Virus record (IMG/VR): IMGVR_UViG_3300045988_076504
Span: 1 to 64,000 of that record
Length of the DNA: 64,000 nucleotides
Origin: a virus
Direction: 5' to 3' (one strand)
Shown piece by piece: positions 3,088-7,230 of the stretch. The position numbers and the translations under genes are program-made. How positions within the stretch are numbered: the first letter of the stretch is position 1; each line of letters starts with the position of its first letter. The notes under the pieces are model-generated. The model saw only the letters and a program-made list of their open reading frames with translations, did no database searches and was not told the DNA's origin.

Positions 3088-3156
3088 TTAGACTATTAGG
3101 ATTCGAACCTAAAATAACAGATAAGTCTGACGTGTTACCAGTTACACTATAGTCTA
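3088..3156 (-). ncRNA. tRNA-like gene (paralogue of the nearby tRNA-Gln) with a collapsed anticodon loop; possibly a pseudo-tRNA
   Basis: The minus strand reads TAGACTA TA GTGT AACTGGTA ACAC G TCAGA CTTA TCTGT TATT TTAGG TTCGAAT CCTAA TAGTCTA A. Acceptor, D arm and T arm are perfect. The D arm, anticodon stem and variable loop are nearly identical to tRNA-Gln at 3789-3860. The anticodon loop is only 4 nt (CTTA) and pair 27:43 is T:T. Confidence 0.6.
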
Positions 3157-3297
3157 AATAAGGCCAGTTCTCAAGCTGGAAATCTCAAACAGAACGACAA
3201 GGACTTTCACCTTATACACCTTTCGGTATGGTTAAATAACCACATGTCTATATTTCACCACGTTCCTCGATTTACTTCCTTACATTTAAAATATTAG

Positions 3298-3426
3298 TTC
3301 CAAACAGGGAATCGAACCCTTATCGATACATGTCTCGACAAATCACCATCCACATAATTCACTTCCACGACGTCAATGCATGTGCCGCTTAAATGAATAG
3401 GTTTGCTATGCGGTAGATTATTTGGA
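3298..3426 (-). ncRNA. 129-nt element ending in a tRNA-type T-arm and 7-bp acceptor-like helix; not a canonical tRNA
   Basis: The minus-strand 3' end reads AGGG TTCGATT CCCT GTTTGGA. GTTTGGA can pair with TCCAAAT (3426-3420) located 128 nt upstream. No canonical D or anticodon arm could be folded between them. Confidence 0.3.
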
Positions 3427-3715
3427 CCCGCGTCTCTCCGCGTGTCATACGTATGGATTAACTGTTCAACATTCACCGCTATCGGCTATAACCTTGCGCT
3501 AGATTATAACGTAGTCGGAGTTTACAGGCTTACAACTGTCACAATGGCTGTTTTAATTAATCACATGTAAACGAGCAGTTTTGAGGACATGCTCAGGTCC
3601 CTACAGACAGTTTATACTCGTGATGGAGTTGACATTATGAATACCAAATGTCGTTTGTAATAATGAAGAATAATGTATGCATATTTATTTAGATTTAGTG
3701 AATAATCTTATAAAA

Positions 3716-3743
3716 ACTATGCTATTTTCACGAACCGCATAGT
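3716..3743 (-). repeat. conserved-loop hairpin, copy 1
   Basis: Plus strand ACTATGC-TATTTTCACGAACC-GCATAGT: 7-bp stem and 14-nt loop. On the minus strand it is followed by TTTTTAT. Confidence 0.75.
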
Positions 3744-3788
3744 AAAAACATATGGAAATATACCTACATGTCTAATAAAATGTAAGCG

Positions 3789-3860
3789 TCAGGCTGTCAG
3801 GACTCGAACCTGAAATAACAGAACCAAAATCTGTTGTGTTCCCAATTACACTACAACCCG
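3789..3860 (-). tRNA. tRNA-Gln (anticodon UUG)
   Basis: Minus strand: CGGGTTG TA GTGT AATTGGGA ACAC A ACAGA TTTTGGT TCTGT TATT TCAGG TTCGAGT CCTGA CAGCCTG A. This is a 72-nt cloverleaf with all arms paired (two G:U pairs in the acceptor). Anticodon positions 34-36 are TTG. CCA is not encoded. Confidence 0.85.
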
Positions 3861-3862
3861 TA

Positions 3863-3894
3863 ATATACATCTATTTTCACAAACCGATGTATAT
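3863..3894 (-). repeat. conserved-loop hairpin, copy 2 (2 nt upstream of the tRNA-Gln 5' end)
   Basis: Plus strand ATATACATC-TATTTTCACAAACC-GATGTATAT: 9-bp stem and 14-nt loop. Confidence 0.75.
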
Positions 3895-3929
3895 ATAATG
3901 TTTAACATCTAAAATATATAATGGCTCCT

Positions 3930-3980
3930 AATCCGACACTACTGTGTTTCGTCTTAATTTTCAAAGACTCATCAGGGATT
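3930..3980 (-). ncRNA. hammerhead self-cleaving ribozyme (stem I open, stems II and III capped)
   Basis: Minus strand: AATCC CTGATGA GTCTT-TGAAAATT-AAGAC GAA ACAC-AGTA-GTGT C / GGATT. All core residues are present: C3-U4-G5-A6-U7-G8-A9, the G10.1:C11.1 pair, G12-A13-A14, the A15.1:U16.1 pair and C17. Stem I is 5 bp, stem II 5 bp, stem III 4 bp. The predicted cut is after C17, between plus coordinates 3935 and 3934. Confidence 0.85.
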
Positions 3981-3983
3981 TTT

Positions 3984-4015
3984 AAATACACCTATTCTCA
4001 CGAACCAGTGTATTT
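3984..4015 (-). repeat. conserved-loop hairpin, copy 3 (between the stop of gene 4029-4343 and the hammerhead)
   Basis: Plus strand AAATACAC-cTATTCTCACGAACCa-GTGTATTT: 8-bp stem, with the same loop core carrying one substitution. Confidence 0.75.
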
Positions 4016-4344: not shown

Positions 4345-4677
4345 TTATACGTATTTAAATTTACAAATACCTGCTTCTTCAGCTTCTTTTATACTGAAAT
4401 CTAGCCAATCGGCATGTGAAGAATTAGTATCAACATATCCATATTCAATGCTAACATTGCATGTGTCAAGGTGTGTGACTTTGGTAAATGTGATGTTTTT
4501 TCTCGTACAGTATTTCTTTAGCGCTTCTACATCTACGCTTTCAACTTCTACTGGGACACCACGTATCAGAGTATCTACACACTCATCTTCCAACAACAAA
4601 GATAGACGTTTTGCTACTTTATTTGGATTTTCCTCAATTAGCGCTTTGATAGCATATTCTTTTGTTTCTTTATTCAT
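4345..4677 (-). CDS. hypothetical protein
   Basis: 110-aa ATG-to-TAA ORF, 1 nt from the downstream gene. Confidence 0.65.
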   Translation of the reverse strand: MNKETKEYAIKALIEENPNKVAKRLSLLLEDECVDTLIRGVPVEVESVDVEALKKYCTRKNITFTKVTHLDTCNVSIEYGYVDTNSSHADWLDFSIKEAEEAGICKFKYV

Positions 4678-4696
4678 CTTGATTATGGTTTAGTTT

Positions 4697-4727
4697 CATA
4701 AAAGAAGGGCAGTTTATGCACATGCCC
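4697..4727 (-). terminator. rho-independent terminator after gene 4739-5440
   Basis: Minus strand: GGGCA-TGTGCATAAAC-TGCCC followed by TTCTTTTAT, 12 nt after the TAA. Confidence 0.6.
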
Positions 4728-4738
4728 AGGTGATTGTG

Positions 4739-5440
4739 TTAAAGTGGTGACACTTCCTCAACATCTACTGTTGGGATGTCCATGCCTTTAACATCTGTTA
4801 AGCCGTAACATCTCAGTTCATCTTCGTTGAACTTAGCACCTGCTTTTTGTGCATCCCTTATGGAATACATGTTTCTAATGCGTTGTTCTGCAACATCCTC
4901 AGGGCGTTGACCAGCGAGGAAATTGTCAGGTTCTCCGAATGTTTGGCATAGGACCTGGAACGATGTGAATAGCTTAACAGTGTCTGAATTAGGATTACAT
5001 ACCCAGGCTCCTGCAGCATGTCCGTTTAATTCCTGTGAGTATTTCATACACATAGGAACTGGGAGTTTGTAATCAACAAGTTGACAAGCTTTAATTAATG
5101 TCAAGTCCTTCTTACGAGGACCGAATGACATCAATGCTTCGAGCTGTTGCTCTGTCAGGACGTAACGTCCGTCTTTAGCATTGGCGATGAGTGTGTTAAC
5201 ATCGGCTTGACCGTTGTTACTCACTACTGCCAATACAGCGTTTTTTAGTGTCTCATTGGAGGCTTTACCATCGTTCTGGTAAGTCTGCCATATCTGCATA
5301 GCGTCAAAATTAACGCATACGAGATGACATCTAAGAATATATTTATCGGTCTCTGGCTGACGCTGTCCGTTAGCATCAGCTTTTTTACGTGGATGAGAGA
5401 CCTCAATGCGATCCACGTAATAGTCGAAAATCTTTGCCAT
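4739..5440 (-). CDS. hypothetical protein, GC-richer than its neighbours; acidic C-terminal tip (possible ssDNA-binding protein, speculative)
   Basis: 233-aa ORF ending ...DIPTVDVEEVSPL. It has its own terminator and a long structured 5' leader. Confidence 0.75.
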   Translation of the reverse strand: MAKIFDYYVDRIEVSHPRKKADANGQRQPETDKYILRCHLVCVNFDAMQIWQTYQNDGKASNETLKNAVLAVVSNNGQADVNTLIANAKDGRYVLTEQQLEALMSFGPRKKDLTLIKACQLVDYKLPVPMCMKYSQELNGHAAGAWVCNPNSDTVKLFTSFQVLCQTFGEPDNFLAGQRPEDVAEQRIRNMYSIRDAQKAGAKFNEDELRCYGLTDVKGMDIPTVDVEEVSPL

Positions 5441-5578
5441 AATATTGCAATTTTAATGGTTTGGCTATATATTAACACAGTCTTTCCTGTGAGTCAGGTA
5501 TGCGAACGTATGAAAAGGGATGGGGAAAAATAGTCTCCCATTTACCCCTTTCCTATACAACCTTCTCGCCATACCAAA

Positions 5579-5675
5579 GCGACCGAAGGTCGAATCTTTG
5601 AAAAAGTATAAATTAGCTGACTTGAACCGCATGGACCGAGCGACGAAGTCGCGAGGAGAGATATAAAAATGAGTA
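5579..5675 (-). repeat. direct repeat R1 (hairpin + TAAATTAGC core + GC-rich tail)
   Basis: The sequence is gCGACCgaaGGTCGaatctttgaaaaagtaTAAATTAGCtgac...gaGCGACgaaGTCGCgaggagagat...atgagtag. It parallels R2 at 6121-6210. Confidence 0.65.
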
Positions 5676-6120
5676 GTTTTACGACATACTCAGGTCGGGC
5701 TGTCCGCTGTTCAGCCTGTGTACAGATGTCACCATCATCACGGAAATACAGAGTGCTCATCTGATTGCTCAGACTTCTTTCTTTTACGGTCATCCCTGTA
5801 TCGATGTTGCCAACCTGCCGCTGTAGACAGGACCTATTCACAGCGTTGTACCGCTGTAGGGAAGGCGTCTCCTTTACCCCGTTGCATTTTCATACGTGAT
5901 GCAACAAACGATGTGTTTGACGAGAACACATAACGACGATGGGTTGGATACCATCATCATGCAGTTTACATACGCAAGGTCATAACCTTGGTAGACAAGC
6001 TCTCCTGCATGATAAGCGCTGAGTTGCGCTAATGTAATCACGTTCGCTTTTAAGGTGTAGAGCGATAACTAACATACGTTTGAAACCAGGTACCGTGTAC
6101 TCCCTGGAAACATACTTTTG

Positions 6121-6210
6121 TTGACCGTTAAGCCGGTCAAACCTCTGAAAGAGTCTAAATTAGCCCACACACAGCGCAGCAGAGCGAGCGAAGCGAGCGA
6201 GAGATGAGTG
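6121..6210 (-). repeat. direct repeat R2
   Basis: The sequence is TTGACCGttaagcCGGTCAAacctctgaaagagtcTAAATTAGCccac...gagcgagcgaagcgagcgagagatgagtgag. The order of elements matches R1. Confidence 0.65.
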
Positions 6211-6231
6211 AGCCAAAAGCCCCGAAGGGGC
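6211..6231 (-). terminator. rho-independent terminator after gene 6239-6436
   Basis: Minus strand: GCCCC-TTC-GGGGC followed by TTTTGG, 8 nt after the TGA. Confidence 0.6.
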
Positions 6232-6238
6232 TTAAGAC

Positions 6239-6436
6239 TCATTTAAACATGCTGTGCCACAGGTGTGAGAATTGCACAAATGCAATAGTTCCACCAACGG
6301 CAAACATTGTTGCTATAATGTACAGTATAACACAATTCAACGTTGTTGGAAGAGTGCATACTGCAAGCATTATGGCTACAGCCCATGCGCACGCTGCAAC
6401 CGTGAGCACGACAACGATTTCAATAAACTTGCTCAT
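6239..6436 (-). CDS. small membrane protein (2 TM segments)
   Basis: 65-aa hydrophobic ORF followed by a minus-strand terminator. The competing plus-strand ORF 6204-6470 starts inside that terminator. Confidence 0.5.
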   Translation of the reverse strand: MSKFIEIVVVLTVAACAWAVAIMLAVCTLPTTLNCVILYIIATMFAVGGTIAFVQFSHLWHSMFK

Positions 6437-6515
6437 AACGATATCATTTAGATCGATAATAAAGAAATAGTTGCCTTTTGTCTACACGTTGGGAGGCATA
6501 ACCCAACACGCCTTA

Positions 6516-6710
6516 CTACACGTTTTTGTCCGCAACAGGTACAGCAAGCACTGTGATGGTATGATAATTACCAACGTGATGCTCCTGCACATGTTTTGCG
6601 AACTCAGGGTTCGCAAACGCCTCAGCAACGCTGTTGTACAGCCCGCTGTAGCGATGGTCCCAGCGACCATTGCGATTACGTGTAGAAAGACGAAGCTGAT
6701 ACTTCATCAT
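6516..6710 (-). CDS. hypothetical protein
   Basis: 64-aa ORF. It ends with tandem stops TAG-TAA (6518-6513). The GCTAATTTA motif lies about 40 nt upstream of the ATG. Confidence 0.5.
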   Translation of the reverse strand: MMKYQLRLSTRNRNGRWDHRYSGLYNSVAEAFANPEFAKHVQEHHVGNYHTITVLAVPVADKNV

Positions 6711-6747
6711 TTCTATTTGTAATTAAATTCGAATCGTTTTAACGACC

Positions 6748-6756
6748 TAAATTAGC
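6748..6756 (-). promoter_or_regulatory. third copy of the GCTAATTTA (minus-strand) motif; candidate promoter element
   Basis: The same 9-mer as at 5609-5617 and 6156-6164, always in the same orientation. This copy is about 40 nt upstream of the ATG at 6710. Confidence 0.35.
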
Positions 6757-7025
6757 CGACTCATTAAGCTTGCCACGGGGGTAGTTTCGTTTCTTCGACG
6801 ACTCGGGGAGGTTGAATTCAGCTGTTTCGCGTTTCTGCACTTTTATCATAAAAAATTTTTATTTCGTGTTTTCGTATTTATATAAAAAAAATAAAATTTT
6901 AATTTTTGTTCTTGAGCTTGTCGAATGTAAATTCACGTAAGTGCGCAAACAACGAAGTTGTGACATAAAAAAATCGAGATCAGCTAAGCTGACCCCGATC
7001 ATCAAAGATTTCTAAAACCGCATTA

Positions 7026-7115
7026 TTAAATTTTACGTAAATACCAACCTATTACAGCTATTATAAACAACATTATAAGAATGCCTATTGTTACCAATAT
7101 GAGTTTACATGTCAT
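7026..7115 (-). CDS. 29-aa hydrophobic peptide (putative)
   Basis: MTCKLILVTIGILIMLFIIAVIGWYLRKI. Its ATG overlaps the stop of the upstream small ORF. It is below the ORF-track size cutoff. Confidence 0.3.
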   Translation of the reverse strand: MTCKLILVTIGILIMLFIIAVIGWYLRKI

Positions 7116-7230
7116 CATCTTTATCTTCATTTTTAAATAATGTCCTGTGCAATACTATTATTGCGAACATAACACTTAATGTTTGTAATACTGCTGCTAT
7201 ATATTGTCCTGCTTCTGGTGTTATTTCCAT
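7105..7230 (-). CDS. 41-aa single-TM peptide (putative)
   Basis: MEITPEAGQYIAAVLQTLSVMFAIIVLHRTLFKNEDKDDDM. Confidence 0.3.
   Translation of the reverse strand: MEITPEAGQYIAAVLQTLSVMFAIIVLHRTLFKNEDKDDDM

Follow-up and report, generated by a model that had tools for sequence, protein, structure and literature searches.

In T4-type phages, the stem-loop motifs of the so-called PeSL cassettes recombine and thereby shuffle small non-essential units (PMC2839356, PMC4122927). In the crAss-like phage phi14:2, two long early intergenic regions give rise to abundant long non-coding RNAs of unknown function, and a virion RNA polymerase with likewise unknown promoters transcribes the early genes of crAss-like phages (bioRxiv 10.1101/2020.03.07.982082). 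Here we describe a locus to be compared with both systems, namely an island of 0.8 kb (positions 5441–6238) in the IMG/VR virus record IMGVR_UViG_3300045988_076504, of which positions 1 to 64,000 were analysed (henceforth ‘the window’). An initial annotation had described the island as free of open reading frames (ORFs), enriched in G+C, densely structured and bracketed by two direct repeats, R1 and R2, and had stated that it matched no feature type that could be named. We find that a nameable analogue does exist in the terminator/promoter cassettes of the T4-type PeSL system, and the locus is best filed as PeSL-like cassette shuffling in the order Crassvirales; its cargo is mostly non-coding and rich in hairpins, and its units end in a new pseudoknot.

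Taken as a whole, our reading is that the island represents the occupied slot of a cassette-shuffling locus with a structured-RNA product, situated in the early minus-strand operon of a TAG-recoding crAss-like phage, and we consider this statement somewhat more probable than its negation. Its components are to be graded separately: the cassette-locus architecture is held with high confidence, the chances that the cassette yields a structured RNA appear evenly balanced, and an accessory role of the cassette, plausibly in host takeover or anti-defence, is a guess.

The likeness to PeSL cassettes is twofold: (i) repeated composite stem-loop motifs in a plastic early region flank variable units, with three copies here and about 40 contigs for comparison, and (ii) recombination between copies explains insertions, deletions and replacements, represented here by a hybrid module in the relatives L033 and L036 and by a clean 373-nucleotide (nt) indel between L011 and L012. 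The locus differs, however, in that the sigma-70-like early promoter defining PeSL is unrecognisable in its module (a phage-specific promoter being conceivable), in the order of the elements (a conserved core followed by two hairpins), in having three copies within one locus rather than dozens genome-wide, in that most cassettes are non-coding and the units end in pseudoknots, and in belonging to another phage order with hosts of another phylum. With phi14:2 it shares long ORF-free stretches on the gene strand in the early block of a crAss-like phage. In contrast to phi14:2, for which repeats, cassette turnover and structure are not described, the island is known from its sequence and not from transcripts, and its DNA has no match among GenBank phages.

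Repeated boundary modules

The direct repeats of about 90 nt proposed initially are real: their global alignment contains 67 identical columns out of 104, with a score of 22 as opposed to −11.8 ± 4.7 for shuffled sequences, and a 22-nt core, GCTAATTTAnACTnTTTCAnAG, occurs exactly twice in the 64 kb, where 0.05 occurrences are expected. A minus-strand boundary module is present in three copies (A, B and C; Table 1), R2 being copy B and R1 copy C; the copies precede a 64-residue gene, the core of the island and a 233-residue gene, respectively; a pattern scan of the window found no copy beyond these three. Read on the coding strand, the module consists of GTGnGnGCTAATTTA, a hairpin of 4–5 base pairs, UU, and a hairpin rich in G+C whose loop is often of the UUCG type. 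The GAA loops noticed initially on the plus strand indeed correspond to such loops on the minus strand, as in CGACC-UUCG-GUCG at 5580–5592. The loop of the first hairpin measures 2–3 nt in all three copies of the window and is longer in some relatives.

Across relatives the core GCTAATTTA is kept, and both hairpins change their letters yet remain complementary. The second hairpin covaries across clades (CGACC/GGUCG, CGCAC/GUGCG, CGUGC/GCACG and UUGCC/GGCAA). R2 is near-identical across L001, L010, L018 and L032, despite the differing cores that follow it there.

An exchangeable slot

Relatives were collected with homologues of the 233-residue protein as anchor, which yielded about 40 contigs with anchor identities ranging from 43% to identical, and cassette segments were defined by means of a BLAST mosaic map among them. 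A gene-free gap upstream of the 233-residue gene is kept in all of these contigs, with modules B and C spaced by 405–1092 nt or with the interval absent altogether. The slot holds the segments winT (the core cassette of the window), alpha, beta, X and Y in varied combinations, giving at least ten arrangements. These comprise B-winT-C (window and L015–L017), B-alpha-winT-beta-C (L018–L022 and L035), B-alpha-X-winT-beta-C (L010), B-alpha-beta-tail-C (L001 and L024), B-alpha-Y-tail-C or B-alpha-Y-C (L023 and L034), B-alpha-winT-C (L032), an unrelated cassette with a tRNA-like T arm (L011 and L007), and a single module devoid of any core (L006, L008, L012, L033 and L036). The unrelated cassette, which is non-coding in its clade, contains at 3650–3726 of L011 a tRNA-like element with the T arm GGTTCGAATCC (Rfam tRNA model, 25.8 bits, E 0.41). 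A number of short assemblies are interrupted ~40 nt upstream of module B.

The initial annotation had offered a repeat-bounded insertion as one possible reading, with empty sites in relatives as its mark, and the empty sites, along with the other or nested cores of further relatives, bear this out. L033 and L036 lack window positions 5663–6409 and retain one hybrid module, with a 5' half of R2 type and a 3' half of R1 type, as would be expected if the two repeats had undergone homologous recombination.

The limits of winT are sharp, its ends being identical in at least five flank contexts. L040–L042 carry it with about 92% identity between flanks without detectable nucleotide similarity to the window. 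Overall, winT is 92–97% identical to its relatives (2.9–8% difference), and the adjacent gene differs by 13–21%, with 30–46% at third positions. The comparison of the window with L018 gives 13 differences in the 452 nt of winT (2.9%) versus 19.5% in the 233-residue gene (39% at third codon positions). Such low divergence beside a diverged gene implies either recent exchange or constraint on nearly every position.

A transposable element (insertion sequence or miniature inverted-repeat transposable element) was considered and rejected: winT lacks terminal inverted repeats, and no consistent target duplication is seen at the junctions in five contexts. Exact-pattern scans with winT and beta retrieved nothing new from IMG/VR and nothing from 185,579 bacterial and archaeal species genomes of GTDB, so that there is no sign of a host origin for either segment.

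A covarying pseudoknot at unit ends

One motif terminates winT, beta and the 233-residue gene, and recurs at one site in the tRNA region of the window; altogether, 23 distinct instances were found in the window and L001–L043. The order of its parts, that is, S1a (4–5 nt), CU, GAGYA, U, S1b, (U)AAAAC, URCUC and then AUUUUUA, fits an H-type pseudoknot followed by a U tract. In their alignment (A8), 92.6% of the cells are paired, compared with 25–53% when the partners are slid, and seven of the ten pairs have changed on both sides. Cells with double changes number 43 versus 16 in shuffles, and none of 500 shuffles reaches the observed score. Variants of S1 include CGAC/GUCG, UAGUC/GACUA, GGAC/GUCC, CAAC/GUUG and UAUC/GAUA, and those of S2 GAGUA/UACUC, GAGCA/UGCUC, AAGCA/UGCUU and GGGCA/UGCCC. 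Behind the 233-residue gene the motif occupies the same position in L003 (6680) and L023 (3721). Rfam holds no family for it.

Since the pseudoknot follows a protein gene as well as non-coding cassettes, and precedes a U tract, we read it as an end signal of transcription units, and it would then act as a terminator or as a 3'-end protector. Like an intrinsic terminator, it presents a stem (S2), then one base and UUUUU, and it stands at unit ends, including one that begins 4 nt past a stop codon. Unlike an intrinsic terminator, the 12-nt loop of its 5-base-pair stem pairs upstream to form the H-type pseudoknot, and the loop letters CU, U and UAAAAC are conserved; the RNA polymerase that would read it may be the host or the virion enzyme.

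The cassette: structured RNA or gene?

Comparative evidence for structure within winT is local. The hairpins listed initially are all present, at or within 2 nt of where they had been placed. RNAalifold applied to four winT haplotypes yields 130 pairs with 4 compensatory changes, 12 compatible one-sided changes and 2 broken cells, and with a structure derived from an independent haplotype, the compensatory pairs number 4 observed versus 0.3–0.5 expected (P = 0.0006–0.0008). Conserved local hairpins lie, for example, at 5911–5931, 5841–5856, 5698–5716 and 5975–5990. L040 contributes further compensatory changes, some of which alter amino acids of the ORF discussed below. Against column-shuffled alignments, winT reaches an alifold z-score of −3.6 and beta one of −7.0, the coding strand giving slightly better values. 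In beta, which lacks an ORF, 12 pairs are compensatory; the alpha, X, Y and L007-type cassettes likewise contain no conserved ORF. Hence, of the structured RNA envisaged initially, the local hairpins stand, but a global fold and a match in Rfam do not.

The ORF-free character of the island is confirmed for the window. No ORF of at least 100 residues exists in 5441–6238 on either strand, and the core has no intact ORF with start and stop, the longest comprising 99 residues from a GTG start and running through R1. Because the plus-strand late genes of this phage (14700–54442, i.e., ~14.7–54 kb) require TAG as sense, with nine ORFs of at least 400 codons versus four under the standard code, recoding is relevant here as well; reading TAG or TGA as sense opened no ORF in the island. 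The cassette does, however, contain an intact 137-residue ORF in sister phages, and the absence of an ORF is therefore a property of the lineage of the window and not of the element. The G+C content of the island is indeed raised (0.46 versus 0.35 for the window), but the rise extends more broadly over ~4650–6750 and includes the flanking genes (0.43 for the 233-residue, 0.43 for a 65-residue and 0.49 for the 64-residue gene), and it thus marks the whole segment and is no RNA signature. This calls for some caution in general: a raised G+C content and the lack of ORFs do not in themselves make an island of an A+T-rich phage an RNA gene, the same element being an ORF in sister genomes.

Several observations weigh against a structured RNA transcribed as a unit of its own. 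First, consensus promoter scans revealed no sigma-70-like site in R1 or R2; neither is a Bacteroides-type promoter (TTTG / TAnnTTTG; −7/−33) present in the modules, nor a TAnnTTTG box on the intergenic coding strand. The ‘start signal’ role of the module is something that we infer, since no promoter can be recognised in it. Second, in the shuffled-sequence control proposed with the initial annotation the single sequence has just a modest advantage over shuffles (minus strand, z = −2.2; plus strand, z = −2.0), a weak effect that is alike on both strands; the impression of dense structure is therefore weak, and it is the comparative evidence that carries the case for structure. Third, the global winT fold is unsupported, as broken pairs are not below expectation, and preservation of structure within the lineage with the broken ORF is a trend only (P = 0.07). 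Fourth, recent transfer, and not constraint, could account for the low divergence of winT. The remaining points concern the ORF: (i) it is open across the whole cassette (137–162 residues) in L032, L035, L040 and L043 as well as in 11 database proteins, from the first to the last cassette base, and stops at or just past the cassette end; (ii) it is present in all haplotypes of the sister lineage; (iii) in L040 it directly heads an operon of small genes, 29 nt before the next gene; (iv) substitutions in its frame are synonymous in 45–48% of cases versus 26% expected (15:16, 17:18 and 7:8; P = 0.003–0.06); and (v) the slot also holds small genes of 64 and 65 residues and one for a peptide of 26–28 residues.

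These last points are the backbone of the leading alternative, according to which the core is a decaying small gene, that is, a 137-residue ORFan which is intact in sister phages and here a pseudogene with no function of its own, the hairpins being features of its mRNA or terminator. We regard this, the main rival, as less likely than a structured-RNA product. In addition to the above, about 150 stop-free codons are estimated to arise by chance in only ~2e-4 of cases per frame at this composition; the other five frames exhibit no synonymous enrichment; frame ‘-0’ of the window has 6 stops versus ~16 expected; and codon-usage log-odds are best in the ORF frame and similar to those of the 64- and 65-residue genes, a score that is in itself ambiguous. 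On the other hand, the ORF of the window is split in three by a −2 indel in a hairpin loop (~5981) and a −1 indel at a helix junction (~5880), and that of the L018 lineage is broken, too, with an added nonsense change. In public assemblies such broken versions outnumber the intact ones (4 contigs of the window type; 13 of the L018 type, carrying its 233-residue protein, plus L010), and they are still 97% identical with their hairpins kept. Moreover, 4–7 compensatory changes in stems, several of which change amino acids, are uncommon where a DNA phage codes for protein, and 52% of the winT substitutions fall on third positions compared with 67–78% in the neighbouring gene. Apart from one cluster at 90% identity, no relatives of the ORF exist among 1.84 billion representative proteins searched exhaustively with HMMER. 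It has no family match and no confident fold either (AlphaFold2 model with a predicted local distance difference test score, pLDDT, of 35), and the sibling cassettes alpha, beta, X and Y are devoid of any ORF. As the 137-residue ORF is split by indels and what is visibly maintained are the local hairpins, we favour RNA over protein as the product in this phage.

Far less probable is that the island is a known class of RNA missed by the models, such as a group I intron, a self-cleaving ribozyme, a Y-RNA-like or tRNA-like RNA, or a guide RNA. The surroundings are rich in RNA-like features (two tRNAs, motifs resembling hammerhead and RAGATH-12 in the window and twister-P1 in relatives; see below), the cassette is nested in intron-like fashion within another non-coding unit in L018, L035 and L010, and the L011 cassette carries the tRNA-like T arm. 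Against this, a scan with Rfam 15 at gathering score found only the two tRNAs in the window, and the scan of the island suggested initially identified no family even at E up to 10, a result that applies to the whole of 4400–7200, and L040 has no Rfam match either; tRNA and tmRNA scans found nothing within the island. Core elements of group I introns are not evident and RF00028 has no match, terminal inverted repeats and consistent target duplications are missing, and the cassette of the window has no ‘exons’ but sits between boundary modules and not inside a gene or RNA.

An element acting at the level of DNA without an RNA of its own (replication origin, packaging site, or recombination hot spot with neutral spacer) we likewise deem highly improbable. 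In its favour, direct repeats with hairpins are typical of origins, too, both strands fold about equally well, and the cassettes are dispensable in view of the empty sites. Against it, an essential origin would not be missing from close relatives, G-U pairs and G-U-compatible one-sided changes are many on the coding strand, a pseudoknot followed by a U tract behind a protein gene is sensible only in RNA, and next to a gene with 20% difference a neutral spacer would not have kept 97% identity, barring very recent transfer.

Proposed mechanism and implications

If the island is the occupied slot of a cassette locus, each unit would be transcribed independently on the minus strand, with the module providing a start signal or a 5' leader with two protective hairpins, and the pseudoknot with its U tract providing the unit end. 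The repeated modules would serve as portable homology by which co-infecting phages delete, insert or swap units, as described for PeSL in T4-type phages, and the cassette of the present phage would yield a structured early RNA of ~0.5 kb rather than a protein. The modules may be regarded as candidate signals for the virion RNA polymerase. One may speculate still further, at long odds, that the module, the ‘hairpin + TTAAT...’ motifs (GCTAATTTA, TTAATATATAGC and TTAATCAC) and the pseudoknot with its U tract jointly constitute a start/stop code of the virion-packaged RNA polymerase, and that the slot carries exchangeable early structured RNAs (winT, alpha, beta, X, Y and one with a tRNA-like arm), which are traded by recombination as accessory tools for host takeover or anti-defence.

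With this locus, the shuffling of terminator/promoter cassettes known from T4-type phages would be extended to Crassvirales, which dominate among the phages of the human gut, and structured non-coding RNA would be shown to be a possible cargo of such shuffling. Two RNA motifs new to Rfam, namely the boundary module and the covarying unit-terminal pseudoknot, could be used to annotate the borders of transcription units in uncultured phages, and both are testable candidates for the signals that the virion RNA polymerase recognises in crAss-like phages.

Features and neighbourhood of the locus

The phage is crAss-like (order Crassvirales), and its 507-residue major capsid protein is 81–87% identical to those of the uncultured phages cr272_1, cr131_1 and cr7_1, of Dulem virus 42 and of a Bohxovirus. 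The genes from position 1 to ~10.6 kb are on the minus strand and use the standard code. Within this early block the island lies downstream of the ThyX gene and upstream of the 233-residue gene; the features of the locus are collected in Table 1. With ThyX as the anchor for locating this locus in named crAss phages, only distant relatives were found.

Table 1. Positions of the modules, cassette, pseudoknots and genes of the locus in the window.
Feature	Position	Strand	Remarks
233-residue gene	4739–5440	−	conserved anchor of the locus
Pseudoknot ending the 233-residue gene	4697–4735	−	S2 GGGCA/UGCCC
Pseudoknot copy in the tRNA region	3563–3602	−	
Leader of the 233-residue gene	5441–5578	−	
R1, boundary module C	5579–5675	−	spacer 5618–5663; 5664–5675 overlaps the cassette end
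R1, GCTAATTTA	5609–5617	−	
R1, hairpin 1	5596–5606	−	CUUU-UUC-AAAG
R1, hairpin 2	5580–5592	−	CGACC-UUC-GGUCG
Core cassette winT	5664–6115	−	452 nt; GUAUGUUUCC...CUCAUUUUUA; non-coding in the window
Pseudoknot ending winT	5661–5699	−	S1 CGAC/GUCG, L1 CU, S2 GAGUA/UACUC, L3 UAAAAC, then AUUUUUA
R2, boundary module B	6121–6210	−	G+C-rich spacer 6165–6208
R2, core GTGTGGGCTAATTTA		−	
R2, GCTAATTTA	6156–6164	−	
R2, hairpin 1	6143–6153	−	CUCU-UUC-AGAG
R2, hairpin 2	6121–6140	−	UUGACCG-GCUUAA-CGGUCAA
65-residue hydrophobic ORF with terminator-like hairpin	6213–6436 (ORF 6239–6436)	−	optional cassette, absent from L010, L018 and L033
64-residue gene	6516–6710	−	first unit of the locus; a non-coding cassette in its place in L007
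Boundary module A	6734–6764 (third repeat copy 6734–6756)	−	GAGUCGGCUAAUUUA and hairpin UCGUU-AA-AACGA; before the 64-residue gene; more degenerate

The 233-residue protein has no match in Pfam or PHROG and no homologue among GenBank phages, and its AlphaFold2 model (pLDDT 54) is too poor for a fold search. In the leader of its gene, a hairpin with a GGAAAGA loop (CACAG-GAAAGA-CUGUG, 5476–5491) is directly followed by TTAATATATAGC (5464–5475), some 25–50 nt before the ATG. While TTAATATATAGC is invariant in eight of eight clades, the adjoining hairpin covaries (CGUAG/CUACG, UAUAG/CUAU and AGAGG/CCUCU). Hairpins of this type also terminate the alpha cassette of relatives and mark a hot spot of cassette insertion.

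The terminator-like hairpin of the 65-residue unit (AAGCCCC-UUCG-GGGGCUU followed by UUUUGG, 6213–6233, minus strand) lies upstream of R2. Hairpin 2 of R1 was flagged as terminator-like, but this hairpin at 6213–6233 and, upstream of R1, the pseudoknot with its U tract are better candidates. The nearest promoter-like site, at 6924–6896, follows a strong terminator at 7000–6972. Small ORFs on the plus strand, suggested by the ATGAGT that ends both repeats, were dropped as candidates, since neither the ATG nor the frame is preserved in L001 or L003. The ‘tail’ segment of the slot (L001 ~5654–5741, L023 ~2700–2781) contains an ORF for an acidic peptide of 26–28 residues, MTYQEYAEEYADSWFDYDG..., with in-frame conservation between relatives, which shows that some slot cassettes are tiny genes.

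Further RNA-like features lie nearby on the minus strand. A second ORF-free, G+C-richer island (3157–3788), located between two tRNA genes, contains the same terminal pseudoknot, along with an ‘alpha’-like hairpin CGCG-GAGAGA-CGCG (~3440) and a sequence resembling a tRNA T arm, GGGTTCGATTCCC (~3320). Just upstream of the tRNA-Gln(UUG) gene (3789–3860), a motif resembling a type III hammerhead (3941–3994) has an intact CUGAUGAG...CGAAAC core and scores 26.6 bits in Rfam, short of the 48.5 required for gathering; the arrangement recurs in relatives, with up to 34.9 bits (L003). A RAGATH-12-like motif at 2771–2851 scores 33.7 bits, and up to 44.8 bits in relatives (L011 6287–6365, L007 8442–8520), the gathering score being 75. 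The tRNA-like gene at 3088–3156 reaches 56 bits in Rfam and has a shortened anticodon loop (CAGA-CUUA-UCUG); it is not called by ARAGORN, which calls a two-base anticodon in L018, and L023 has a tRNA with UUA anticodon at 3834–3906. Finally, L011 (8331–8395) and L007 (10822–10886) contain a motif resembling twister-P1 (47.4 bits; gathering score 67.2), immediately behind which, and ahead of a gene start, stands the recurring motif TAGAGTTAATTAACA...TTATCAAAATG; the two may form a processing-plus-start unit.

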